A stretch of DNA of 64,000 bases from a virus (IMGVR_UViG_3300037408_000437:3897-67896); one strand, 5' to 3'; shown: positions 6,901 to 64,000, numbered from the stretch's first letter. Numbers and translations are program-made. The notes: generated from the letters alone by a model not told the origin.

Positions 6901-9900
6901 AGTTCCGACATCATCCAGTTGAACTCGCCGCGAAGCTCCGTAGTTTGTTCAGCGGTGAATTCGTTCGCGGATACGGGCTGGGCAGTAGGCAAAGGTTTCT
7001 GCTTAACCTTAAACCACTCAGATTCAGAGAGTATTGGGTTGTTATCCAGCCAGTCTTGATAATGCCGTTCGGCTTCGACTTTGGCCTTACTCGCTTCCGC
7101 GCGTTGTTCAGGGGTAACAGTCTTCGGTTCTGGTTTTACTTCAGGCGGACGGGCCGCGACTTCGGAGCCTTCCAGTTTACCTTCGCCTGGCATAGTCCGT
7201 AGCGTGGCGCTAGGCTCTTCACCAGACAACCTCCCCAGCTCCTTGGAGGTCTTTTGAACACGATATTCAATCTGTCGCCATTCTTCGCCGTATAACCGCT
7301 GATCATCCGCCGCTGACCGGTCCCAAGCAGGATCTTTGATACCGGCGCGTTCCAGGAGATCGAGTACGGCCTCACTATCGTTCAGGGCGTTGTCATCGCG
7401 TAGAGTACGATCTTGGTACACTTCACGTACTTCTGTGATTTTACTACGTGCCAAGCGTAATTTAGCGTTACGGTTAAGGAATACGTTACGTAATTTACCT
7501 ACAAACCTAGCGAGAACGTCGGGGTTGTTCAATAGGAACACATCGTCTTCCTTGGCGGGAAATCCCATGGCTTCACGGTCAGAGGCTTCTTGCCGGCGTC
7601 GGACGGTTTTTTGAAACTGCCGTTCCAACTCACTCAAATCCTCCGTTAAAGCTGCGGCTTCATTCTGTAAAGTCGCGATCTCTTTAATCAACCCTTTTAT
7701 TGAACTCTTTACTTCAAGTACGTCGCCGACAGTTACGAATTCGCGAGTCTTGGGGTCGTATTTCAGTATCCAGCCACGTAGCGGGCTGTTTTCAGGGAGG
7801 TTATCAAAATCAACCAGCGACAAATCGGTTTTTATACCGTCGGTGGTTTGGTATTTCCACATTTTCGCCGGAACAGGCTTATCGTCTTTATCTTTCCTGA
7901 TGCTGCCGTCTAAGTTTTTTAGATAAACCGGCTGATTCTTCGCGTCCTTCTTATCCACCAACTGAGTATGGGTCTCGGTGGGCATCGGCCGCAAACTGTG
8001 CGCGAGTTTAGTGCGTAATACCTCAAAGCCCTTGACCAACGCCGCGATGCGATCCATGTGGGTGCCGGAAACGGCGTCCAAGCCCCGCATGGCGGTATAG
8101 CCCACCTTTACCACGTCGTCTAGCGTCAACTCCGCCGAAGCCCCGGTGGTTAGGTGGGAAGCGTCATTTTCATGGTATTTCAGATAGGCACGGACGAACA
8201 GGTCGATAATACCACCGAAGTTATCAACCTTGATGGCGTGGTAGTTCTCAGTAACGGTGCGTTTGGTCCTCGGCTTCTGGTACGTATATAGCGGAATACC
8301 CATTTGCTCCGCAAGGGTTTTGTTGATAATGACCATGCCGCGCCCCTGAGTTTCCAGGCGCGATGGGTCTTTTACCAGACTCTCATATCGGGCTTTATCC
8401 TTGGCTCGTTGCGCAGGAGATTTCTTTTTGTCCAGCTTCGGGTCTATCAGGTCGTCGAGATTCTCTAAAAATCCTTGGTCGTTACGAAATTGAACCTTAC
8501 CTTCGAAGAACACGGCGTTATCAAAACCCATCGCCGCCAACAATGACCTGCCGAAGTCCTTGGCGCCTTCCGTCAGTCGGCGTTTACCGCCGATTAGTGG
8601 ATCGTCCTCCAACGCTTTATCGACTTCCAGTACTAATCCTTGGAGTTTATGGCGCGTGGCCGGGTCCGTGAAGTCCAAACCACGCCAATCGTCCACGGTC
8701 TGCTTGGCACTGGCGAGTGCCTGCTCCATCGCGCCAACCATGCGCTGGATTAGTGGGTGCTTCAAATTAGCTCCCGTTGAAAACACTACCCCGGAATTAC
8801 GCTTGCTGGATTCAGCCATTCGGGATGTACTGCGCCGCCGTTCCTCCACCAGGGTAGCCAACGAGTCCAGCGTGGCGCGGGACAGCCCGCCCTCCATCCG
8901 AACCAAGTCGGCGTCCGGGCCGGGTTTGGCGGTTTCCTTAACGTAGACGATTTGTCGGCCATCTGGGATTCGGTGTTGAGCCAGTTCGAACTTTACATCG
9001 AGGCCGGCCTGATTCAGCATCAGGGTACGGGTCATCAGTACGTGCTGCATCGCGGCGGGTAGCGCTTCGAACAGCGGATTTCCATAGCTGGCATCGAATC
9101 GCTCGCCCATCCGGGCGCCTTTCAAATCCAGCGAACGAGTACCGCCAGCATTGAGCAGGCTACCAGAATCCAGTTCGTCGCCCAGCGGAATCGCTTCGAC
9201 TCGCGAATATACCTGTCCTTGCCGGTCACGGGTATTTTTGCCCGCCGTCTCGAAGACCGTGGAACGTAATGCCAGAGCGTGAGATAGGGTGTCCGGGCGT
9301 TCCTGAGTTTCGAGGTCATCGTCGTAGCGTAGCGCATCAACGACATTGGTATCGACAAAATCGCTCTCTTCGGGGATGGCCTCAAGCAACCCACCATCTT
9401 CATCAGATAACGGAACCATCTCTTCGTAGCGTTCTTGGTCTGCTTCCTGACTACGCCGTTCGTTAACTAGGTCTTCTACGGTTAATTCATTGCTCTCTTT
9501 ACGTTGTAGGGCCTCATAGAGATTTACCAACGTTCGTAAGAACTGCTCACTGGAAACACGCTCGCCCAATAAATCTTGGTAAGCGAGTCGAGCCGTTCTG
9601 AGGTCCTCGGGTGCTACGTCAGGGTCGACCACTAGCTCCTGCATTACAGCTTCAAGATTTTGCCGGTCATCTACCCTGGCGAGAGCAGTGAGTACATGTT
9701 TGACTACTGTGTACTTCCCATCGGCACCCAGCGCGCGCATTTGCAGAACCGGTAAGAATTCCGAAGTGACGCCCGACAGCCCGACAGCGGTACGTAGTTT
9801 CGTTACGTAGCCACCTCCTAACTGATCCGCCAGTAAACGTTCGAGGGCGGCGTTTACCGTTGGGTTAGCGCGCTCGGTAGGCTTGGCGACGATAGCTGAA

Positions 9901-53947: not shown

Positions 53948-54181
53948 TCAGGCCACTTGGGGTTGGTGGGGCGGTGGAGCGACGGGCTGGGGGAGCGACG
54001 CGGGTCTGGCAACGGCGCGAGCCAGCCGCCAGCCTTGACAACCCTGCTTGCCACAGTCGCACGCCACGGCATCGAAGCCGCTGGCGGTGATGGCGTCCCA
54101 GGGTATGGACGAGTGGTTCTGGCGATGCCTGATCCACATCTCCCGAGTAAGCGGCGTGGGGGTGGCATTGAAGAGTTTCAT
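53948..54181 (-). CDS. Hypothetical Cys-containing protein
   Basis: CDCG..GC.GW; ATGA overlap with terS. Confidence 0.5.
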   Translation of the reverse strand: MKLFNATPTPLTREMWIRHRQNHSSIPWDAITASGFDAVACDCGKQGCQGWRLARAVARPASLPQPVAPPPHQPQVA

Positions 54182-55008
54182 GGTCCGTCCTCCAGGTCCA
54201 TAACCGTTCGTTCGACGTACTCGGTTCGTTCGATGCGCAGGTGCTCGTGGTGAGCTGGGTGGGGCTGGTGAGTCAGGGCTGGCCGGTCGGGTGGGTTCAG
54301 ATCGATCAGCGCGGCCTGGGCGCGAGAGCGGGCTTGCTCCAGCCGGTCAACGATGCTGATATCAACCTGCACGTCGAGTTTCTCGGCCAGCAGTCCCTGG
54401 TGCTTGGCCAACAGCTCCAGGGCCTTGAGCTTATCGACGCCCTTTACCTTCACGGAAGTAGTCCCGTCACGGGCCGTGGTGTGGGTGATCTCCGTCACGA
54501 TACCCCGTTTGGCGCGCGGCAGGGACTCGGAAGGGATCATGGAGGGCCGGCCATCGGCGTCCCAGGACATCACGTCGGTGAGGTCGCCCATGGCCAGATT
54601 ATAGAGCTGGCGGAGGGTCAGCTCCGGCGCCAGGTCAATGGGGCCTTCGTTGGTGTCGAGCAGCAGCCGGACCAGGAGCATGACCGGATGCCGGGGGTCG
54701 CGGGTCATGGCGAGGCGCAAGGAACTGGCGAGCTTCCCGGCTCGGTCTGGGTCGAGGGTATTCGCTTCGGCCAACGCCTCGACGGCCTGCTCGTAATTGA
54801 ATCCGCAGTACACCAGGGCCATGGCCAGGAGCTTTTCCAGCATGGCGGCCGGGGCCTGGTTGGGACCCACCAGGGCGGCATCCAGGAGCTCGGGTTGGAA
54901 CCCCATGTCGCGGAGCACGCGACGTAGCGTCAGGAAGCGGGCGACCAGCGCCTGGCGACGGGTGGGATCGCGGAGGGTGAGCAGGTCCAGGCGAGCGATA
55001 TCGAGCAT
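54178..55008 (-). CDS. terS: Terminase small subunit
   Basis: LA.GD.TD...WD..G...LP...I.EI...DG...VKV...DKLKALELLAKHQG. Confidence 0.75.
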   Translation of the reverse strand: MLDIARLDLLTLRDPTRRQALVARFLTLRRVLRDMGFQPELLDAALVGPNQAPAAMLEKLLAMALVYCGFNYEQAVEALAEANTLDPDRAGKLASSLRLAMTRDPRHPVMLLVRLLLDTNEGPIDLAPELTLRQLYNLAMGDLTDVMSWDADGRPSMIPSESLPRAKRGIVTEITHTTARDGTTSVKVKGVDKLKALELLAKHQGLLAEKLDVQVDISIVDRLEQARSRAQAALIDLNPPDRPALTHQPHPAHHEHLRIERTEYVERTVMDLEDGP

Positions 55009-55215
55009 TTACGGCGGGGTCTCGGGCGCGGTGGCGCGGCGTCCGTCGGGGCCCGGGGGTAACTCCTCGACGACGTGTACGCCTTCCACCGGTTTCCAGA
55101 AGTGGTTCCCGTACAGATTGGAGAGTTTAACGTAGAGCCCGGAAGGAGAGTATTCCAGGATATAGCACTCGATGGGGTCGAGGCCGCGAGAGCTAATTAA
55201 CACACGTCTGTTCAT
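55009..55215 (-). CDS. Hypothetical protein, first gene of the leftward operon
   Basis: Directly downstream of a consensus promoter; its stop abuts the terS ATG. Confidence 0.55.
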   Translation of the reverse strand: MNRRVLISSRGLDPIECYILEYSPSGLYVKLSNLYGNHFWKPVEGVHVVEELPPGPDGRRATAPETPP

Positions 55216-55221
55216 GCGGGA

Positions 55222-55250
55222 ATTATAAGAGATACCTTGTAGGTTGTAAA
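55222..55250 (-). promoter_or_regulatory. Sigma70 promoter for the leftward operon
   Basis: TTTACA-17 bp-TATAAT. Confidence 0.75.
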
Positions 55251-55390
55251 GGATTTTCTTCGTGCGTAGAACTATACCCCAGGATTTTTGGCACCTTCTA
55301 TAGGTAGTCCTAATTCCGGTCCGGGGTACCCCCCCTGGGGGTCACTCGGCCTTCGGCCTCGCCACTCCCGTCGATTGCTGGGTGCAACAA

Positions 55391-55436
55391 GGGGGCTATG
55401 CCGTCTGGAGTCGTGGCAATTCCGCCGAGGAGATTG
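55391..55436 (+). repeat. Early-gene leader repeat copy 1 (right arm plus RBS only)
   Basis: GGGGGCTATGCCGTCTGGAGTCGTGGCAATTCCGCCGAGGAG. Confidence 0.85.
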
Positions 55437-55790
55437 ATGATGAACGACTTTACCTTCGACCCAGCACCCGACTACGTTACCGATATAGAGTGGGGTTTCA
55501 CGCGTCGTGACGAGCAGGGGCTTGCTTATGACAGCTCGTTAGCTATCCCTGAGAGCATGGCACCGCAGTTCGTAGTCTTGCCCGAGGGCGCGTACAAGGG
55601 ATTAAGCAAGCTGGCCTGGCAAATCCGTAAGCTCGAAGCCAAACGCTTCAACACGCCCGTGATGCAAGTGAGTTGGCGCAGAGCGTTGTGGCTGGCTGTG
55701 CTGATCTCAGGGCGGCGGCACAACACCAACTCATGGTTGATGCTCGGCGTCCAGCAAGGGTTCGCCAAAGGCTACCTGGCTTGGTGCTAA
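55437..55790 (+). CDS. Early hypothetical protein
   Basis: ATG after the GAGGAG of leader copy 1. Confidence 0.6.
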   Translation: MMNDFTFDPAPDYVTDIEWGFTRRDEQGLAYDSSLAIPESMAPQFVVLPEGAYKGLSKLAWQIRKLEAKRFNTPVMQVSWRRALWLAVLISGRRHNTNSWLMLGVQQGFAKGYLAWC

Positions 55791-55795
55791 CCCAT

Positions 55796-55860
55796 AACGG
55801 CACGGTCCTTCAGGGGGCCGTGCCGTTTGGTGTTGTGGTACTAACAACAGGAGAGCAGAG
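55796..55860 (+). repeat. Early-gene leader repeat copy 2 (hairpin plus RBS)
   Basis: AACGGCACGGTCC-TTCA-GGGGGCCGTGCCGTT then GTTGTGGTA...CAGGAG. Confidence 0.9.
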
Positions 55861-56088
55861 ATGAACAAACCCTGGTACGAGCGAATGAAGACGGTAAGTA
55901 AGGAGGAGTATGACAGGCGCTTCACACCTTGGAATCATGGACGGTATGAGGCGGAGCGGTTGGAGTCATCTGGCGTACCGCCGGGGGTAAGGATAAGCGA
56001 CAGAACTACCGGCCGGATGTTGGCCGGTTGGGATAAAGATCGAGACGGAACCATCCGTTACTGGGTGGTGAAAGGGGAGCGGAAATGA
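55861..56088 (+). CDS. Early hypothetical protein
   Basis: 75 aa after leader copy 2. Confidence 0.6.
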   Translation: MNKPWYERMKTVSKEEYDRRFTPWNHGRYEAERLESSGVPPGVRISDRTTGRMLAGWDKDRDGTIRYWVVKGERK

Positions 56089-56318
56089 AAATTTCTTTTA
56101 AAGGTCACAGCCTTCGGGTCACCGACCAAGCGGCGGCGGATGCCTTGATTCCCAAGGCTCAGCGGACGGACGGGCTGTACCGGTTCCTCATCTCAGGGGA
56201 TAAAATCCTCCTGTGCTTAGGGAACACGGTGATGGCTGCGGCTCCCCTGAGCCAGCCAGAATTTCGCGTGGTTATTGAACGGGAGGACGGTGGCAGTTTG
56301 ACGCCGCCGGCTCCTTAA
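56085..56318 (+). CDS. Early hypothetical protein
   Basis: ATGA overlap, GGAG RBS. Confidence 0.55.
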   Translation: MKISFKGHSLRVTDQAAADALIPKAQRTDGLYRFLISGDKILLCLGNTVMAAAPLSQPEFRVVIEREDGGSLTPPAP

Positions 56319-56330
56319 CATCAGTAGGAG

Positions 56331-56579
56331 ATGACTATGAGCAAGAAGAAAGTGCAGTTCGCGCACGCAACGCGGGTACCTGGTGTACGGTGGCCGGGTG
56401 GATCGATCACCTACATACAAGGTTGTGTCCCCCTGACGGCGCGAGAAGTCCGGAAGATCATGCCCTGGAGCAAGATAAAGCTCCTGAAGAAGTCGCACAA
56501 CCGGGGGGCGGCTGGGGCTATGAAGGGTGTGTACATCGTCCCGGTGGGCTGGGACCACTGGGTCCGTGGTCTGGAGTGA
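56331..56579 (+). CDS. Early hypothetical basic protein
   Basis: AGGAG RBS, 82 aa. Confidence 0.55.
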   Translation: MTMSKKKVQFAHATRVPGVRWPGGSITYIQGCVPLTAREVRKIMPWSKIKLLKKSHNRGAAGAMKGVYIVPVGWDHWVRGLE

Positions 56580-56584
56580 CATCA

Positions 56585-56643
56585 GACGGCGCGGTCCTTC
56601 AGGGGGCCGTGCCGTTTTTCGTCGTGGTATTAACAACAGGAGT
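56585..56643 (+). repeat. Early-gene leader repeat copy 3
   Basis: GACGGCGCGGTCC-TTCA-GGGGGCCGTGCCGTT then CGTCGTGGTATTAACAACAGGAG. Confidence 0.9.
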
Positions 56644-56844
56644 ATGACCATGGATAATTCAATCCCCAACGCAGCCCGCCTCGCACGCCTCGCTGGCGTG
56701 CCCTGCCCTGCCCTCAACCAGGAAGATTTCTCGTTTGTGATCTGGGAAGACGGCCCTGACTGGGGCCACATCGACGTAGTTCGAAACAAGGTAACCCGCT
56801 GGAACCCTGAAACCCAGCGGCACGAGCGGATTTACCCAACCTAA
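56644..56844 (+). CDS. Early hypothetical protein
   Basis: MTMDNSIPN... after leader copy 3. Confidence 0.55.
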   Translation: MTMDNSIPNAARLARLAGVPCPALNQEDFSFVIWEDGPDWGHIDVVRNKVTRWNPETQRHERIYPT

Positions 56845-56848
56845 TCTT

Positions 56849-56923
56849 AGACGGCACAGTTCCCAGGTTCATCAGGGGGCTGTGCCGTCTGGTGTTGTGG
56901 CAATTCCGCCGAGGAGAGCAGTC
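56849..56923 (+). repeat. Early-gene leader repeat copy 4
   Basis: AGACGGCACAGTTCCC-loop-GGGGGCTGTGCCGTCT then GTTGTGGCAATTCCGCCGAGGAG. Confidence 0.9.
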
Positions 56924-57199
56924 ATGAGAGTTAAAGCTATGCAATTTAAGGCTTGGCCTGTCGATGAGGGCGAAATGGGTATCCGCCTGGACGTGGATGT
57001 TGACCGCGAGGCGGACCTTCCGCCGTGCCCCGGGCTGGGCGGCTGGAAGAAAGCCGGGTCCGGGATTTGGTGGACCAGGATCAAAGGACAGGCGGCCATG
57101 GACCTGGCGGCAGTGCTGTCCGGGTCGCCTGACGGATGGTTTCAGGACGTTATGGTCACCATGGACGGCGACCGGCTGGCGGGGATTGTTCCCGCCTAA
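56924..57199 (+). CDS. Early hypothetical protein
   Basis: MRVKAMQF... after leader copy 4. Confidence 0.6.
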   Translation: MRVKAMQFKAWPVDEGEMGIRLDVDVDREADLPPCPGLGGWKKAGSGIWWTRIKGQAAMDLAAVLSGSPDGWFQDVMVTMDGDRLAGIVPA

Positions 57200-57244
57200 C
57201 ACGCCGTCGCCTCAATAATCCCAGACAAGAGGTCTAGCAACCAA

Positions 57245-57269
57245 GCCCGCCAGGGATGGCAGGTTTTTT
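57245..57269 (+). terminator. Intrinsic terminator ending the first early cluster
   Basis: CCCGCCA-GGGA-TGGCAGG followed by TTTTTT. Confidence 0.6.
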
Positions 57270-58397
57270 GTTTAGGGGTGCCACCGTGCTCGTCGCTTCG
57301 CGCCGAGCAATATAGTTAAAAACTATCGAGGGTCGCTCGGCCTTCGGCCTCGGCCTATCGCACGGCCGGCGACGACCGAACGCGGCGGCCCCAAGAGCGC
57401 GGGTGAGGGGGCGCGTCCGTGGGATGGGCTAAGTAACCGGCCGTGGGGGCGCGTCCGTGGGACGGGCTAGGTAACCGGCCATAGCTAAAGGCTATCGCGG
57501 GGCTGGCGGAGCGATAGTCCTAGCCTATCGCGGTGGCCGAGCCAGCAAAATCCACCCCGAACAGCCGTGGCAAGGGCAGGGATAGCAGGGAAACAGGAGG
57601 AAAACTCGGCCTTCGGCCTCGGAGAAAATAAATTTTATACAGGGATGTGACGGTGTGTCTAGGTTGCGAAGGGTGCGTGGGTGGGGGGGAGCATGGGTGG
57701 GACAGATTACTAGAATATTAAAGTTTGCTCATATACATTTATGTATATATAACACATTATGCAGGGTTTTTAGGGGGTAGCAGGTAACTCGTTGATATTG
57801 TTGCTATATATGCGCGCGTGAGGGTGGCGATAGTTAAAAGCTATCGGAAAGTAAATCTCGATAGCTTGTAATACACGTAATACAGTAGCAAATCGCCCTT
57901 TTTCAGAGCTCACCGCTCGGCAACAGATAAACCCTCGTTTCAGAAGGTATATACCCTGTTTAATTAGTATTTATTACCTTAATCTTAACTAAATAAAAAT
58001 ATAAAAACATAAAAAAAGAATAAACAAACACACGCTGTTATCATCTGTAACCTTTTTCTCTGTTTTCTTCTTCTTCTTCTTCTTCTTTTTATATATATGC
58101 TAAGTAAAGATAAATTAGCACATAAAAAAAAATCGACATAAACATCCTAGAAAGAATCAATAACTTACTTGTAGTTATAAAGCCTATCACCGATACGCTA
58201 CATACAAGCCATTGATTTATAACAAGTCACTTTTTCTCATTTTTATAACTCATTGATTTTCCTTGTAACTCTATTTTTCGCTTTCTGTACAAGCATCTTT
58301 GATGCCAACTCAAATTGCACACCTGCTGAACCTCAAGCTTAGCCCGCACTCGCTCAGCCATATCCTCACTTCTGTTACGCTTCACAACATCCAACCA
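57270..58397. other. About 1.1-kb non-coding region: candidate origin, terminus or packaging region
   Basis: No convincing ORF; GC-rich repeats and palindromes followed by an AT-rich tract and a (CTT)n run near 58063-58090. Confidence 0.55.
57407..57480. repeat. 36-bp direct repeat x2 (period 38)
   Basis: GGGGGCGCGTCCGTGGGA(T/C)GGGCTA(A/G)GTAACCGGCC. Confidence 0.95.
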
Positions 58398-58447
58398 GGG
58401 GGTCATGCCGTCTTGCTTGGTGATCTTACCCATATAAGGAGCCCCTT
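58398..58447 (+). repeat. Early-gene leader repeat copy 5 (right arm only)
   Basis: GGGGGTCATGCCGTC...AAGGAG. Confidence 0.7.
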
Positions 58448-58573
58448 ATGAACTTCGAACACTTCGTCGATCCCGCCTTCGAGCAATTCATGCTCGCCCT
58501 CCACCTATTTATCCAGGCAGACAGGGATTTTTCTCTGTTAAAAACTACCCATTACCATTCGAGGATACTCTGA
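58448..58573 (+). CDS. 41-aa early peptide, not in the ORF track
   Basis: MNFEHFVDPAFEQF...; AAGGAG RBS; TGATG overlap with the next gene. Confidence 0.55.
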   Translation: MNFEHFVDPAFEQFMLALHLFIQADRDFSLLKTTHYHSRIL

Positions 58574-58776
58574 TGATCTTAGAACGAGGTATCGCCTTAC
58601 GTACCACAGTCGTTGACGACGGTGAAGAGTTTTACATCACCGTAACACGCTTCCCCAACTGCATCATTTCCCGATATGTACAAGATTATCGAGGACGTGT
58701 ATTGGAACACACCCCCTACTGCTGCCACCAAGAATTCGAGCGATTAATTGACCTAATAAAGGGAGCATCACAATGA
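58573..58776 (+). CDS. Early hypothetical protein
   Basis: GAGG RBS, stop-start overlap. Confidence 0.55.
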   Translation: MILERGIALRTTVVDDGEEFYITVTRFPNCIISRYVQDYRGRVLEHTPYCCHQEFERLIDLIKGASQ

Positions 58777-58940
58777 ACACCACCACCCTCAATCCAAGAA
58801 GTAACCGAACCTACCAGAAACGCCAGCTCTACCGTTGGTACCTACGCCAGCATTTCCATCTAAAGGCTTTCTTATTCCACCTCTTCCTGAAATATGTCCT
58901 ATACCGAACGTTTTACCGAGTAGTCACCAATCGCCCCTAA
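58773..58940 (+). CDS. 55-aa basic/aromatic peptide, not in the ORF track
   Basis: GGAG RBS, ATGA overlap. Confidence 0.45.
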   Translation: MNTTTLNPRSNRTYQKRQLYRWYLRQHFHLKAFLFHLFLKYVLYRTFYRVVTNRP

Positions 58941-58947
58941 CACAACC

Positions 58948-59032
58948 CGGCATAACTCCCAAATTTCATAAGGGGGTTATGCCGTCTTTAATTATGGTAC
59001 TAATACCACATCCTGTTACCGGAGTTTCCATC
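58948..59032 (+). repeat. Early-gene leader repeat copy 6
   Basis: CGGCATAACTCCC-loop-GGGGGTTATGCCG then TATGGTACTAA...GGAG. Confidence 0.85.
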
Positions 59033-60016
59033 ATGCCTACTGCTATGCAAATCGCTCTTGAAACCGCTGGCTACAACGATTCCAATATTATCCACGCTCA
59101 GTTCGCTTCCGAAGACCCGGAAGAGTTTGAATCCGAGAGCACCTGCGCGCTCGGCCACGAAGACGCTATGAATCAACCAAACACCAGTATCATCTCCTGG
59201 GATTTGGTAAGCAACGAACGTGGTCGCCTGAATCAAGAGCTACCAGCCCTGGAAGCCGATCTACCCAAGCTCAAGCAGGCCTCAGCCCAAATCGAAGCGA
59301 AGTTCAACAATCATCTGGCAATCAGTAAACGCCAGCAGGAGGAAGTGGCCTACATGGCCAATAACTTAGGGTTTATGGACGCTACTCAAACCCAACGTTA
59401 TCAGGAACTCCAACAAGCGCAGCTCACCAGCCGGACACTGGAACTGAAAATGCGCCAGGAACTCGCCCAAGTACGCGGCAAGCTCCAAACGATCCTAGGC
59501 GAAATCGAGTACACCAAGATCGTAAACGATCTCGATCCCGATGAACTCGATTGGGTACGATTCCCATGCAGTCCATTCGACCACGTTCTCATCACGGGTC
59601 TCTGCTATGCCATAAGAGATCGAATCCACAATCGGATCGTCTCAAACCAATTCGAACGGGAAGCCATCGAAGCTCGGCTCGCCACGCTCCAGTCTCAAAG
59701 CGCCTTGGAGCACTGTGAATCCATTAGACTGGAAAGTAATCTGTCTCAAGCCGATGAGCTTTACTCTCAGTTAGGGCGCCTCGATGATGAGACCGATAAA
59801 CTCCGTCGCTACTCCATGATCTACCGCCTGGTGGCTCACATCACCGCGAAGGAATTGACCAAGGAAGAACTTCAATACAAAGTCGGTTTCCCACCGCGCT
59901 CAACAGCACAGATTCGAGCCGCGTGGATCGAGTCACGCGCCAAGAAAGCCGAAACTCGGTTGGCCCAAAGCCGACAGAAGTCAGCAACCACCAACGCGTT
60001 TTTTGATATCTCGTGA
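59033..60016 (+). CDS. Coiled-coil early protein
   Basis: Start MPTAMQ after leader copy 6; 327 aa, Glu/Gln/Leu-rich. Confidence 0.65.
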   Translation: MPTAMQIALETAGYNDSNIIHAQFASEDPEEFESESTCALGHEDAMNQPNTSIISWDLVSNERGRLNQELPALEADLPKLKQASAQIEAKFNNHLAISKRQQEEVAYMANNLGFMDATQTQRYQELQQAQLTSRTLELKMRQELAQVRGKLQTILGEIEYTKIVNDLDPDELDWVRFPCSPFDHVLITGLCYAIRDRIHNRIVSNQFEREAIEARLATLQSQSALEHCESIRLESNLSQADELYSQLGRLDDETDKLRRYSMIYRLVAHITAKELTKEELQYKVGFPPRSTAQIRAAWIESRAKKAETRLAQSRQKSATTNAFFDIS

Positions 60017-60026
60017 GGTAATCACC

Positions 60027-60155
60027 ATGCCGATTCATAACGAATTTGGACGAATTATGTTCTTTGTATACACCAGTAAGTTCGAAGAATTCACTCAGTA
60101 TATGGTATTTGACGATACCAATTACCTGATAGCCGTCCACACCGTCTATAAATAA
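60027..60155 (+). CDS. 42-aa peptide, not in the ORF track
   Basis: GAGGT RBS; MPIHNEFGRIMFF... Confidence 0.5.
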   Translation: MPIHNEFGRIMFFVYTSKFEEFTQYMVFDDTNYLIAVHTVYK

Positions 60156-60166
60156 CCACCACCACC

Positions 60167-60231
60167 ACGGCATAGCTCCCAACAGGGGGTTATGCCGTCT
60201 TTCGTCGTGGCAACCACACTAGGAGACCACC
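60167..60231 (+). repeat. Early-gene leader repeat copy 7
   Basis: ACGGCATAGCTCCC-AACA-GGGGGTTATGCCGT then CGTCGTGGCAA...AGGAG. Confidence 0.9.
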
Positions 60232-60429
60232 ATGGCTACGTTCAATGAAAATAGTTTCTGGAAGCAGTTTGAAGCCGCGCCCGTCGGCACCACCTTCCGG
60301 CATCCCCGAGACGGCTACATCATGAAAACCGGGGTTGGGACCCGACGCAGTGGATGGTCCCCACAAAACCTGAACACCAAATTCGCTAAGGAGCTCAACA
60401 AGCGTTGGACTCCCACCACCTTCAAGTAA
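60232..60429 (+). CDS. Early hypothetical protein
   Basis: 65 aa after leader copy 7. Confidence 0.6.
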   Translation: MATFNENSFWKQFEAAPVGTTFRHPRDGYIMKTGVGTRRSGWSPQNLNTKFAKELNKRWTPTTFK

Positions 60430-60802
60430 CCCACCCATGGACAAGCCCGCCAGAAGATGGTAGGCTTGTCCATATCTCTGTTACACCCCAAAACCCCGGC
60501 GATATCCGTGGGAGACGCATGACATAGAAGTTTGGAGATAAAATGAACCCCATCCTCTACACATTACGTTATCTTCTGCTACTCGCCCACACCGGATTTG
60601 AGCAAAATTATTGAGATCAGGTCTTCATGAATGATCTCTACATTAAATTCCTAACCGCCGCTGACGCCAAGCTAACCGAGCTCAATAAAAATGACCGCAC
60701 TTGATTAGATGCACCAATACGCTAGATGCCGGTTTCTACTGGAAACCACCCCATATTCCTCAAGAATCACCCTCGATCTATTCGGACTAGGAGTATAAAC
60801 CC

Positions 60803-61276
60803 ATGTGGACTGGATTCATGGACATGCACAGCGGTGGCGACACTAAAATAGAGCCATACGAATACATTTTCATAGAAGCCCCAGAAGACGAAGCAAAAGT
60901 AATCTTCTACAACCGCTTCCATCGCAACCCAGAACGGATAACCTGCACGTGCTGTGGTGGGGACTATAGCATTACCACCTACCCCAACCTAGCGCAAGCA
61001 ACAGCCTATGAACGCGGCTGCGCATATGGTTACATAAACGCTAACGGCATTGAAATAACTCCTGATGACTGGTACGCACTGCCCCTTAGGCAACAACATG
61101 AATGGAAAGGCCAATACCTCGAACGTGAAAACTACAGAAACCACAAATACCTAACACTAGAAGAATATATGGAATGCAATGACGTACTGTTTATCCCTGC
61201 TTCGTGCATCGAACCACACGAAAGACAGGGCGAAATTCCATCAGAAGGTTATATATGGATCGAATCAAATGACTGA
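60803..61276 (+). CDS. Conserved phage protein with CxCC motif
   Basis: FMDMHSGG..K.EPYEYIFIEA...RNP.R.TC.CCG.DY; AGGAG RBS. Confidence 0.65.
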   Translation: MWTGFMDMHSGGDTKIEPYEYIFIEAPEDEAKVIFYNRFHRNPERITCTCCGGDYSITTYPNLAQATAYERGCAYGYINANGIEITPDDWYALPLRQQHEWKGQYLERENYRNHKYLTLEEYMECNDVLFIPASCIEPHERQGEIPSEGYIWIESND

Positions 61277-64000
61277 CACGACCTTCATCGATTTCGAAAC
61301 CCATTACACTCAGGACTATAATCTCAAGAAATTAAATTACTACCAATATATACAAGACCATAGATTTAGTATTCTAGGCGCGGCCATTATTCATAACAAC
61401 GAGCCCGCTCAATGGTTAACTGGCCTTGACCTCGCCACACTCCTGGATGAACTACGATACAACCCGCCCGAAGCCGTCGTAGCCCATAATACCCTATTCG
61501 ATGGCCTCATCCTCACCCAGCTCGGCGTCACCACCGAGCTATGGGTAGACACACTCAGCATGGCCAGAGCCCTGTTGCCCCCTGGCACCCCACTAAGCCT
61601 GGATGCCCTGGCCAAACGCTACCACCTGGGCCAGAAACTGGAAGGTCTGCCGATGGGCATAGCCTCGTGGGACGAACTCTCTCCCGAGGCCCAGCGCCGC
61701 CTGAAGGTCTACGCCATTAATGACGTGGAGCTCCTTCAAAAGCTCTATCAAACCCTCGCGCCACAATTCCCAAGCCAGGAGTTTGAATTAATCGACCTAA
61801 CCCTGCGAATGGCATTCAAACCTCATTTGCAACTCAACATGCCATTAGCCCAACAACTCCTAGCATCCGTGGGGGACCGAAAAACCAGACTCATCAATGA
61901 ATCAGGGCTCTCGGAAAAAGTATTATCCTCGAACAAACAGTTCTCTGAGTGGCTCCTAGCAAACAACTATGACGTACCAATGAAGGTTTCCCCGACTACC
62001 GGTAAACAAACTCCGGCCCTCGGCAAATCCGACCAAGCCTTCCTCGATCTTCTCGAAGATAACCCAGAACTCGAACCCGTCATCGAAGCCCGGTTAGCCG
62101 TTAAATCCACTCTGGAAACCACTCGCTTAACCACGCTCATCGAAACTCAGCAACTCATGAGAGGCGTCCCGGTCCCCTTAAAATACTACGGCGGACATAC
62201 TGGTCGCTGGAGTGGATTGTTCTATAACCTTCAAAACTTACCTAAAAAATCCGAAATCCGTAATACCCTGGAAGCCCCAGAAGGAGAAACCCTCATTATC
62301 GTTGATAGCAGCGCCATCGAGGCCCGAGTTCTAGCCTGGCTAACTGGTCAGGAATTTGCCTTGACCGCATACAAAAATAACGAGGACCTCTACAAGGTCA
62401 TGGCGGGTAAAATATATAACAAAGAACCCACCAAAGTAACTAAGGATGAACGCACCTTAGGTAAAATCGCGGTACTTGGATGCCTAGCATCAGATACCCA
62501 AGTATTGACAGATATGGGATGGAAGCCTATAATCGCAGTATCAATTTCCGACAAACTATGGGATGGTGTATCGTGGGTAAGGCACAAAGGCTTGATTTAC
62601 CAGGGTCAACAGACAGTAATAACGCAACACGGCGTAACCATGACCCCCGATCACCTCGTTCTGACGCCCGTAGGTTGGCGCAAATGGGAGGACACCCATA
62701 CAAACCATTCCCTTATGGACTCGGCGACAAAATTGGTGAATTTACCATCAAAGGCTGGGAGCAAAGATTCACCTCTTCGGGCCGCAGTAATGGCTGGCAT
62801 CCAATCGTGGTTTGTTCATGTGGTTGGACCGGCATGGTACTCCGTGAAAACCTTATTAAAGGAAAAACTACCCGTTGTAATACCTGCGCTAAACGTAAAT
62901 CAACAGATACTCGAAAACATTATTGGGGTTATGCGGAAATACTCCCGGATAACAACCACCGAACTCGCCTACTCAACCGACTCTCTTCCTGCATCGGACG
63001 CTGCCATTGCCCAACCAACACATACTACCACCACTATGGAGAGCGAGGAATATCCGTATACCAACCATGGAGAGAAGATCGCGGGACCTTTCTCAACTAC
63101 GTTCAAACGCTTCCTGACTGGGATATCCCAGAATATGAACTGGATCGCATCAACGTGGATGGCAATTACGAACCAGGTAATATCCGATTCGTATCCAAAT
63201 CAACCAACCTTTGTAACAAACGAAAAGTCCCCACACTCCAATATAGAATCACAGAACTCGAACAAGAAAATACCCGTCTACGATCTGAGCTATTGCGGAC
63301 CAAACAACAGATTTACGATCTTGAGCAACAAAGGACCGCTATTAGTACATAATTGCGGCTATGGAATGGGATTCAACAAATTCGTTCTTACCTGTAAAAC
63401 TTACGGAGTGACAATATCCGAAGAACTCGCCCAAACAACCATAGATACTTACCGAGAAACCTATAACCTAGTTCGTAATCTCTGGCGTACCTTCAATTCT
63501 TATATCCAGATAATGACTACCGATTTCGCTGAAAAATCAGGTAAAACCCCGTGGCTTAAATATACCGCACCTAACGAAACCCCGTGGCTTGAATATACCG
63601 CATCTAACGAAACCCTAACAACCCTGATATTCACAACTGAAAAAATTAGATTACCAAATGGACTCGCTCTCCATTATCCTAATCTACACCAAAACAACCA
63701 AGGAGAATATGTTTACGGACTTAAAAACAGCATTAAAAAAGTCTATGGCGCAAAAGTCGTCGAAAACATAGTACAAGCCCTAGCCCGTAACATCATCGCC
63801 AAACAAATGCTAGACGCCTATAAAACGCTACCGGGTACACTCGTACTATCCGTTCACGACGAGATAGTAGTCAGTACAAAAACCCAACACGCCGAATCAG
63901 TTTTACAAGACCTTATAACCATCATGAAAACTCCACCTAATTGGGCCAGCACTTGCCCTCTCGATGCCGAAGGCTCGATCTCCAAATTCTACAAGAAGTA
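61269..64000 (+). CDS. polA: Family A DNA polymerase with 3'-5' exonuclease, intein-containing; runs to the window edge, not in the ORF track
   Basis: My translation: IDFETH, AHNTLFD, YAINDV (exonuclease); HTGRWSG, NLQNLP, DSSAIEARVLAW (motif A), KIAVLG|CGYG (motif B, split by the intein), ENIVQALAR, SVHDEIV (motif C). Confidence 0.95.
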   Translation, partial: MTDTTFIDFETHYTQDYNLKKLNYYQYIQDHRFSILGAAIIHNNEPAQWLTGLDLATLLDELRYNPPEAVVAHNTLFDGLILTQLGVTTELWVDTLSMARALLPPGTPLSLDALAKRYHLGQKLEGLPMGIASWDELSPEAQRRLKVYAINDVELLQKLYQTLAPQFPSQEFELIDLTLRMAFKPHLQLNMPLAQQLLASVGDRKTRLINESGLSEKVLSSNKQFSEWLLANNYDVPMKVSPTTGKQTPALGKSDQAFLDLLEDNPELEPVIEARLAVKSTLETTRLTTLIETQQLMRGVPVPLKYYGGHTGRWSGLFYNLQNLPKKSEIRNTLEAPEGETLIIVDSSAIEARVLAWLTGQEFALTAYKNNEDLYKVMAGKIYNKEPTKVTKDERTLGKIAVLGCLASDTQVLTDMGWKPIIAVSISDKLWDGVSWVRHKGLIYQGQQTVITQHGVTMTPDHLVLTPVGWRKWEDTHTNHSLMDSATKLVNLPSKAGSKDSPLRAAVMAGIQSWFVHVVGPAWYSVKTLLKEKLPVVIPALNVNQQILENIIGVMRKYSRITTTELAYSTDSLPASDAAIAQPTHTTTTMESEEYPYTNHGEKIAGPFSTTFKRFLTGISQNMNWIASTWMAITNQVISDSYPNQPTFVTNEKSPHSNIESQNSNKKIPVYDLSYCGPNNRFTILSNKGPLLVHNCGYGMGFNKFVLTCKTYGVTISEELAQTTIDTYRETYNLVRNLWRTFNSYIQIMTTDFAEKSGKTPWLKYTAPNETPWLEYTASNETLTTLIFTTEKIRLPNGLALHYPNLHQNNQGEYVYGLKNSIKKVYGAKVVENIVQALARNIIAKQMLDAYKTLPGTLVLSVHDEIVVSTKTQHAESVLQDLITIMKTPPNWASTCPLDAEGSISKFYKK
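62481..63353 (+). mobile_element. 291-aa intein in polymerase motif B, with no in-frame endonuclease
   Basis: Block A CLASDTQVLTDMGWKPI, block B TPDHLV, block F VYDLSYCGPNNRF, block G LVHN followed by extein Cys; frame checked stop-free codon by codon. Confidence 0.93.
62684..63352 (+). CDS. HNH homing endonuclease in the -1 frame inside the intein
   Basis: CSCG...C..C, YG.RGISV...W, ELDRINVDGNYEPGNIRFV...N..NKR; ORF open from ATG 62480; AGGT RBS before ATG 62684. Confidence 0.88.
   Translation: MGGHPYKPFPYGLGDKIGEFTIKGWEQRFTSSGRSNGWHPIVVCSCGWTGMVLRENLIKGKTTRCNTCAKRKSTDTRKHYWGYAEILPDNNHRTRLLNRLSSCIGRCHCPTNTYYHHYGERGISVYQPWREDRGTFLNYVQTLPDWDIPEYELDRINVDGNYEPGNIRFVSKSTNLCNKRKVPTLQYRITELEQENTRLRSELLRTKQQIYDLEQQRTAIST
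63544..63614. repeat. 33-bp in-frame tandem duplication in polA
   Basis: AAACCCCGTGGCTT(A/G)AATATACCGCA(C/T)CTAACG x2, encoding TPWLKYTAPNE/TPWLEYTASNE. Confidence 0.95.

Follow-up and report, generated by a model that had tools for sequence, protein, structure and literature searches.

A 64-kb stretch of virus DNA (IMGVR_UViG_3300037408_000437:3897-67896; below, the window) contains, between 55391 and 60231, seven + strand copies of an element lying ahead of small genes in two rightward clusters of ORFans. On balance, this element is probably a composite boundary between expression units, in which a terminating hairpin and an overlapping half that starts the next unit are combined and shuffled by recombination. 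It is repeated, covaries in the manner of an RNA, prefers one strand and keeps a fixed geometry; arm-less and orphan-arm copies occur, and relatives have their gene-content breakpoints at it. Termination, initiation and the timing of expression are the parts of this reading that we infer.

The right arm of the element, GGGGGYYRTGCCGT, was searched for with at most one mismatch. Eight matches were obtained in the window, of which seven, starting at 55391, 55813, 56602, 56875, 58398, 58972 and 60185, were on the + strand and all within 55391-60198, and the eighth, on the - strand, was the left arm of copy 7. From shuffles, 0.24 matches were expected, and none of 100 shuffles reached eight. No extra copy was found in the whole virus record, nor in 5.3 kb present only in contig L013. 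Left arms were located at 55796, 56585, 56849, 58948 and 60167, and none adjoined copies 1 and 5. The search thus confirmed the seven copies and left arms, and the two copies lacking one, that had been listed in an earlier note made from the sequence alone.

As shown in Table 1, copies 2, 3, 4, 6 and 7 are full hairpins (stems of 13-17 bp, loops of 4-11 nt), with a folding energy of -23 to -27 kcal/mol for the hairpin alone (-20 to -28 kcal/mol with the relatives included) and an arm consensus of ACGGCAYRG.../...CYRTGCCGT. Copy 2 heads a three-gene unit (B, C and D), and an 80-nt segment there gave -36.2 kcal/mol (z -4.1). The right arm is followed by 8 nt in every window copy and then by a box, RTGGYA (replaced by GTGATC in copy 5); a leader poor in G and rich in A/C leads on to an AGGAG-type ribosome-binding site and ATG. 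Relatives found by protein look-ups added 14 copies, full or partial; over window and relatives, the 8-nt spacer was constant in 21 of 21 copies, with a box of YRTGG(Y)(A), and the distance from box to ribosome-binding site varied from 8 to ~30 nt. The box and the AGGAG-type site with ATG that the earlier note had placed after the arm are thus present, the box of copy 5 being poor.

A covariance model search, proposed in that note, was run with a model trained on nine copies, copies 2 and 3 being outside the training set. The five window hairpins scored 42-79 bits on the + strand (copy 2, 46.6; copy 3, 42.5; copy 4, 76.7; copy 6, 78.9; copy 7, 63.9) and their reverse complements 17-27 bits; over all copies, the ranges were 36-82 bits and 17-34 bits, respectively. 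Three left-out copies from the window and relatives were recovered at 36-47 bits, and the copies of L079 and L080 at 43 bits. Copy 1, a clear member despite its absent left arm, gave 19.3 bits, and copy 5 gave 11.5 bits (E-value 2.6).

Pairing was counted in 14 hairpin copies from six loci, the window and five relatives (copy labels: W, window; R, L010; S, L075; T, L076; U, L079; V, L080). In model-fitted alignments, which were used because MAFFT alone misaligned three short-stem copies and which are biased toward structure, 96.9% of the pair cells formed standard pairs; when the partner was slid by 1-3 columns as a control, ~45% were paired. Changes on both sides were found in five of the 14 pairs (15 cells), and the covariation score was 0.433 versus 0.288 in shuffles, none of 500 being as high. 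The same pair table was obtained from an independent fold of each copy. Double changes were seen between orthologues, at pair 9 in W6 versus R6 and at pairs 7-9 among W7, R7 and T7 (copy 6 has orthologues in L010 and L075, and the orthologues of copy 7 in L010 and L076 bear compensatory stem changes); since these changes separate orthologues, they do not reflect one inherited event. V2 has C-G instead of A-U at pair 6. That loops vary while stems covary, as the earlier reading had it, therefore holds.

About 28 cells were not Watson-Crick pairs, and all but three or four of them were G-U on the + strand, where the - strand would have A-C mismatches. The mean folding energy was -25.0 kcal/mol for the + strand and -19.6 kcal/mol for the - strand (5.4 weaker), the + strand being the more stable in 12 of 14 copies. 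The G-U pairs and the weaker - strand fold argue that the structure is selected in the + sense, i.e. the sense of the genes, and point to a + sense RNA hairpin. The compensatory changes and + strand wobbles also bear out the strand-specific structure, in RNA or single-stranded DNA, that had been suspected. An Rfam scan of 54000-62000 (E-value up to 1) gave no match. A second small hairpin involving RTGG was considered and dropped, its registers differing among copies with no consistent structure; RTGG pairings in W3, W7, R7 and T7 sometimes involve the start codon.

A folded + strand of DNA, as in an N4-type hairpin promoter or an integron attC-type recombinase site, would also be compatible with G-T pairs on the + strand only, and the arm-less copy at the 5′ edge together with an orphan left arm at the 3′ edge in L079 loosely recalls attI/attC arrays. 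We regard this as very improbable. N4 promoters have stems of 5-7 bp and loops of 3 nt, unlike those found here, and are served by a virion RNA polymerase, of which no signature was seen in the 4036-amino-acid virion protein or elsewhere in the proteins scanned (the scans for polymerases, sigma factors and recombinases covered part of the phage open reading frames (ORFs)). The N4-like reading had been suggested by that large protein and was rejected, as Pfam, PHROGs and PDB gave only SLOG, DUF7831, nuclease and zincin motifs in it; it is also without a DxDGD or T7-like motif. Imperfect repeats with the attC core GTTRRRY were not seen, the arms being without it, and no integrase was found among the proteins scanned; the rearrangement joints described below lie at differing positions, against a fixed crossover point. 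The least probable alternative is a double-stranded operator, an inverted repeat bound by a dimeric phage repressor governing each unit. Inverted repeats do lie directly upstream of gene starts, and a small ribbon-helix-helix-like gene lies beside cluster 1 in L080, but the half-site distance varies from 4 to 11 bp, and within one genome the arms covary from copy to copy, to which a single binding protein could not adapt; moreover, the G-T wobbles make the repeat asymmetric, and arm-less copies would be one half-site.

The hairpins start 4-11 nt past the stop codon of the upstream gene. The stem base is GC-rich (CGGC/GCCG in 13 of 14 copies), and four to six U lie within 8 nt after the arm, with U5-U6 runs in W3, R7 and T7 and UUUUAUCUU in S6a/S6b; the tracts after the stem range from good in these five copies (e.g. 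UUUUUCG, UUUUUUA) to poor (UCUGG, copies 1 and 4). A GC-rich stem with a loop of 3-10 nt is one mark of an intrinsic terminator, and stems of 13-17 bp with loops of 4-11 nt agree with it; a run of U directly after the stem is another, and here the copies vary. From these features we infer that the internal hairpins may serve as leaky terminators or attenuators, which in + sense RNA would end or attenuate the upstream unit and also shield the 3′ end of its message; the cluster ends use other, canonical terminators (T1 and T2). The element has in common with intrinsic terminators and attenuators a GC-rich stem, a small loop, a U-containing tract of varying quality, a position just past a stop codon and a predicted action in the sense RNA. 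It differs from them in that many copies have interrupted U-tracts, and in that sequence conservation extends over the descending arm and the box downstream, which are also found where the ascending arm is absent.

The earlier note had likened the element to the RNase III sites of T7 (R0.3 to R1.3). In processing of this kind, one polycistronic RNA per cluster would be made from a single upstream promoter, and RNase III would cut the hairpins or RNase E the U-rich spacer, leaving stable messages with a 3′ hairpin and a conserved leader that serves translation only. The layout is indeed T7-like, with conserved hairpins between small genes and one strong terminator closing each cluster; the internal U-tracts are weaker than that of T1, weak sigma-70-like sites lie upstream of cluster 1, and it is the sense-strand RNA that folds. 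T7 RNase III sites, however, are longer, irregular helices of about two turns, usually with internal loops, and the stems found here are short (13-17 bp), perfectly paired, GC-rich, without internal loops and followed by U-containing tracts, which makes them look like a terminator or attenuator, so the analogy is not supported. Nor does processing give a reason for the right arm and box being kept at hairpin-less cluster heads or explain the fixed 8-nt distance to YRTGG, and the promoter scan gave no sigma-70 candidate ahead of cluster 2. We consider the T7-like scheme unlikely; RNase III cleavage of the hairpins as such may occur but is less likely.

The most informative feature is the absent left arm at copies 1 and 5, which shows that the right arm and box are kept alone. 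The arm-less copy at the head of cluster 1 is retained in four lineages, the window, L079, L010 and L080 (W1, U1, R1 and V1); all four keep the arm, spacer, box and leader, and conservation starts sharply at the G-run, the DNA upstream diverging. Between the G-run and the ribosome-binding site, copies 1 and 4 share 93% identity (44 nt). Because the distance from arm to box is fixed while that from box to ribosome-binding site varies, the right half behaves as a signal with its own internal geometry and not as a passive half-stem. The descending arm, the 8-nt spacer and YRTGG(Y)(A) would form a separate unit-start signal, with the leader, ribosome-binding site and ATG next. A long-range partner for copy 1 (CCGGGGUACCCCCC at 55322) was considered and rejected, the fold giving z -0.7 versus shuffles and the pairing not being kept in L080. 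The conserved RTG of the right arm was also tried as the start of an upstream ORF and rejected, this frame matching that of the gene in three of seven copies, which is the chance level.

No sigma-70-type promoter was called by a consensus scan on the + strand close to either cluster head, and none of sigma-70-like form between stem and Shine-Dalgarno at any element; by eye, no TAnnnT hexamer with a matching -35 was seen in the 20-45 nt between stem and ribosome-binding site. Sigma-54, extracytoplasmic function (ECF) and extended -10 readings of the box were tried by eye and failed in spacing or key bases. We prefer, at about an even chance, to read the right arm and box as an initiation signal of unrecognised specificity, which would direct initiation by the host polymerase through an unrecognised specificity factor, over roles at the RNA level. 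The main alternatives are a hairpin-dependent pause at the U of RTGG, 10 nt past the hairpin, or a signal acting in processing, message stability or translation.

If the pause were the answer, the element would be a hairpin-stabilised pause or translation-coupled attenuator, at which the ribosome ending the upstream gene would open the left arm and thereby set whether transcription reads through or terminates. The constant 8-nt spacer (21 of 21 copies) followed by YRTGG puts a pyrimidine-G ~10-11 nt from the stem base, and stop codons lie very near the left arm. Hairpin-dependent pauses have a spacing of this kind, and Y(-1)G(+1) marks the elemental pause. The arm-less copies, however, have the box without a hairpin, and there is no upstream G at -10; we hold this alternative to be quite unlikely.

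Several points weigh against a composite boundary with its own start signal. The right half fits no promoter consensus checked by eye (sigma-70, extended -10, sigma-54, ECF) and lacks the conserved A at position 2 of the -10 hexamer, and the phage proteins that were scanned include no RNA polymerase. Upstream of cluster 1 lie a weak sigma-70-like site, TTAACA-18-AATTAT (55197-55226), and, by eye, TTGGCA-17-TAATTC (about 55283-55311), which could drive cluster 1 as one operon, and the arm-less copy 1 could be a relic maintained through gene conversion from internal copies. None of the repeat hairpins was called by a consensus terminator scan, and several copies have weak U-tracts (UCUGG in copies 1 and 4). 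Copy 5 is a marginal member because of its low score with the covariance model, and its counterparts in L010 and L079 are degenerate (GGAGGCTATACCGT, GGAGGCCATGCCGT). The alignment behind the pair counts was fitted to the covariance model, which favours structure, and the relatives are few and closely related (five related loci, most of them short).

A narrower and more doubtful proposal is that the G-run/8-nt/YRTGG module is a new kind of promoter for the rightward ORFan clusters of this phage family, onto which, in the lineage of the window, the terminator of each preceding unit would have been built through the evolution of a complementary left arm. Its reader would be either the host RNA polymerase, redirected by a phage factor that is co-injected or made very early, or a polymerase beyond known profiles. 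If so, a single 30-nt stretch would close one unit and open another. A unit-start half that is conserved, has a fixed geometry and fits no known promoter consensus, together with no recognisable polymerase in the scanned proteins, might reflect a novel way of directing transcription.

A family-level relative, L081 (polymerase 45% identical), has the same gene order, with divergence from the small-terminase side, two rightward ORFan clusters with an AT-rich gap between them, and then the DNA polymerase gene. Its early units have a canonical terminator and, 60-240 nt on, a different conserved 41-nt box before the ATG, which starts with a G-run and ends in CAACCCACAGGAG; no sigma-70 promoter was called at them. 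Like the window element, this G-run box lies ~45-50 nt before the first ATG of each unit, with a degenerate copy heading cluster 2; unlike it, the terminator (AGCCCCC-TTCG-GGGGGCU6) and box are 60-240 nt apart, and the box is without a partner arm. Homology of the two boxes is unproven, their similarity not exceeding chance (23 of 300 composition-matched shuffles scored as high), and L081 is therefore used only as an analogy. As such it is an example, within this phage family, of a terminator and a unit-start box that form distinct modules, which in the lineage of the window would overlap.

The gene content of relatives differs exactly at the repeats, as the cassette borders postulated in the earlier note require; breakpoints were seen in L010, L075, L079 and L080 when relatives were compared for gain and loss. 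L010 is a 71.4-kb contig whose polymerase is 87% identical over 43% of that of the window, which carries an insertion; the small terminases of L079 and L080 are 95% and 58% identical to that of the window, and the 327-amino-acid proteins of L075 and L076 66% and about 75%. L010 and the window are collinear in cluster 2, at ~73% identity, and align in cluster 1 in the elements and terminator alone. At the protein level, cluster 1 has a single shared gene family (C), at a different place in each phage (Table 1). The first element of L010 (R1) is a hybrid of the upstream flank of copy 1 and a copy-2-type leader, with gene C directly after, and represents a deletion between right arms. In L075, an extra 76-amino-acid gene lies between two near-identical elements, ahead of the 327-amino-acid gene. 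In L079, an orphan complete left arm (AGACGGCACAGCTCCC) passes directly into the T1 hairpin, the two having a CCC in common; the window equivalent of this joint is AGAC alone, between remnants of the 3′ end of gene C (before) and of the 3′ end of L010 gene I (after). Joints thus lie inside the right arm, at the loop edge and at 4 nt of the left arm, and because they fall at different points, homologous and microhomology-mediated recombination fits better than a site-specific enzyme. Because the same 60-75 bp precede unrelated genes, the element would be a substrate for homologous and illegitimate recombination that shuffles the cassettes.

No usable early region was present in L083-L086. IMG/VR pattern scans for the element gave one unrelated chance match inside a gene and then none, and a scan of metagenome contigs gave 59 single matches, about chance for a 35-bit pattern, none with a left arm or similar leader. 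With the DNA polymerase as bait, no match was found in IMG/VR.

The T4-type stem-loop cassettes offered as an analogue proved to be the best known match. Promoter-early stem-loops (PeSLs) of T4-type phages consist, as defined in PMC4122927, of a terminator stem-loop directly followed by a sigma-70-like early promoter, a Shine-Dalgarno sequence and ATG; Arbiol et al. 2010 (PMC2839356) and Comeau et al. 2014 (PMC4122927) describe them as repeated in hyperplastic ORFan regions and as shown to drive modular shuffling and mini-circle formation. PeSLs have measured promoter and terminator activity, and PMC2839356 used reporter fusions and inverse PCR. The window element is likewise a short composite motif repeated in one orientation before small ORFan genes, with the same order of stem-loop, unit-start signal, Shine-Dalgarno sequence and ATG. 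It too is concentrated in variable ORFan regions where relatives differ by motif-bounded insertions, deletions and replacements, and the extra gene between two motifs in L075 has the topology expected of cassette insertion. It differs in having no sigma-70-type -35/-10 pair between stem and ribosome-binding site, in a unit-start sequence that overlaps the descending arm (in PeSLs it follows the stem), and in longer, sequence-conserved stems. The PeSL host is a T4-like myovirus; the element is in an unrelated podovirus-like lineage with a genome of ~73 kb. By sequence, the element thus resembles PeSLs in layout and evolutionary effect and appears to be a variant, not a member.

In the literature searched, composite terminator/start cassettes that shuffle ORFan genes are described only in T4-like myoviruses and one cyanophage. 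The window provides a clean case in an unrelated, uncultured podovirus-like lineage, in which copies without a left arm, an orphan left arm and several datable rearrangements are seen. This case suggests that phages in general may turn over accessory genes through modular exchange at regulatory repeats. The covariance model is a practical handle for finding cassette borders in relatives.

Table 1. Copies of the element, cluster-closing hairpins and gene order in cluster 1 (numbers in square brackets are elements, letters are genes)
Feature	Position	Strand	Details
Copy 1, without left arm	55391..55442	+	Right arm 55391-55404, 8-nt spacer, GTGGCA 55413-55418, AGGAG 55428-55432, ATG 55440 (gene A, 116 amino acids)
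Copy 2, full	55796..55863	+	Hairpin 55796-55827 (14 bp, loop UCAG), GTGGTA 55835-55840, AGGAG 55849-55853, ATG 55861
Copy 3, full	56585..56652	+	Hairpin 56585-56617, UUUUUCG, GTGGTA 56624-56629, AGGAG 56638-56642, ATG 56650 (gene E, 64 amino acids)
Copy 4, full	56847..56926	+	Hairpin 56847-56892 (17 bp, 10-nt loop), GTGGCA 56897-56902, ribosome-binding site, ATG 56924 (gene F, 91 amino acids)
Cluster 1 end	57223..57273	+	AGAC 57223-57226 (4-nt left-arm remnant), then terminator T1 CCCGCC-AGGGAT-GGCAGG 57246-57263 and UUUUUUGUUU
Copy 5, weak partial, cluster 2 head	58398..58450	+	14-nt right-arm match (exact), 8-nt spacer, GTGATC, AAGGAG in small palindrome, ATG 58448
Copy 6, full	58948..59035	+	Hairpin 58948-58984 (13 bp, 11-nt loop), ATGGTA 58994-58999, long leader, GGAG, ATG 59033 (327-amino-acid gene)
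Copy 7, full	60167..60234	+	Hairpin 60167-60198 (14 bp, loop AACA), GTGGCA 60207-60212, AGGAG, ATG 60232 (65-amino-acid gene)
T2, terminator-like hairpin closing cluster 2	60439..60482	+	GGACAAGCC ... GGCTTGTCC; conserved in L010, L076, L077
Cluster 1 order, window			[1] A [2] B C D [3] E [4] F
Cluster 1 order, L079			[1] A' [2] B' C
Cluster 1 order, L010			[1] C G [2] H [3] I
Cluster 1 order, L080			[1] A-like [2] C

The window is 64 kb out of a 67.9-kb IMG/VR virus record. Two near-identical contigs (L013 and L014) are 73.2 kb each and contain ~5.3 kb (L013 12733-17950: exonuclease, primase, rIIA) missing from that record; since this segment is missing, the "100% complete" record is not the whole genome. 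The record stops at the polymerase stop codon and resumes at rIIB. The gene set is podovirus-like (P22-type portal, Phage_capsid_3 capsid, large terminase, the 4036-amino-acid virion protein), and further includes a family A DNA polymerase, rIIA/rIIB, helicase, thymidylate synthase, a Q-like protein and an H-NS-like gene; the last, together with consensus sigma-70 promoters, points to a proteobacterial host. The phage is present in the samples JGI 3300037458, 3300037524 and 3300042932 and GCA_025490975/995 and GCA_025491015. No deposited phage has a capsid more than 41% identical, and blastn of the repeat region against 50,697 phage records gave no match. RNA polymerase was not found by Pfam, PHROGs, PDB sequences or motif search in the part of the phage ORFs that was scanned, and other large phage proteins were without a polymerase match.

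A near-consensus sigma-70 promoter, TTTACA-17-TATAAT (55250-55222), heads the leftward-running genes for structural proteins and nucleotide metabolism. The small genes form cluster 1 (55440-57199) and cluster 2 (58448-60429), which are separated by 1 kb of non-coding DNA that contains repeats and is AT-rich in its core. Each cluster is closed by its own terminator-like hairpin (T1 at 57246, T2 at 60439), and the DNA polymerase gene is next. T1 and T2 have the 12-mer CAAGCCCGCCAG in common (57240-57251 and 60442-60453), and their stems differ. No cassette protein had a match in PHROGs, Pfam or PADLOC; as these proteins are ORFans, "early" timing and "host takeover", both put forward in the earlier note, follow from position only, and the label host-takeover ORFs is a guess.

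Copy 5 overlaps a possible - strand ORF (58227-58433, 68 amino acids) divergent from cluster 2. This ORF stays open in the window, L010 and L079, with its N-terminal 47 amino acids conserved and a weak third-position bias. The palindrome AAGGAGCCCCTT at copy 5 could provide a ribosome-binding site for both strands.

The non-coding region 57270-58230 contains two 38-nt direct repeats (57400 and 57438) and four GATAG-N7-CTATC palindromes (57309-57849), followed by ~400 nt of very low GC with (CTT)n; either an origin of replication or the physical ends of the genome may lie there. Another repeat, CTCGGCCTTCGGCCTCG, forms a GGCC-UUC-GGCC mini-hairpin and lies at 55346-55361, 57337-57352 and 57607-57621 of the window, flanking the non-coding region and also ahead of copy 1. 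It is tandemly expanded in L010 (5165-5270, 6538, 6630), and L081 has the look-alike GGGCTTCGCCC.

In L010, a 37-bp direct repeat (9560-9672) brackets the end of an extra 87-amino-acid gene after the last cluster 2 cassette; this gain is not bounded by the hairpin element. In L080, an extra 54-amino-acid gene (967-1131, - strand of the locus) with its own TTGACA-type promoter lies before cluster 1, and its product looks like a ribbon-helix-helix regulator from its sequence. The DNA polymerase gene of the window (61269-64000) encodes 910 amino acids, compared with 603-605 in L010 (10001-11818), L076 and L077, and therefore holds an insertion of ~300 amino acids. In the related contig L083, an IS605 OrfB/TnpB (Cas12f-like) gene at 868-2016 is inserted directly upstream of the DNA polymerase gene.

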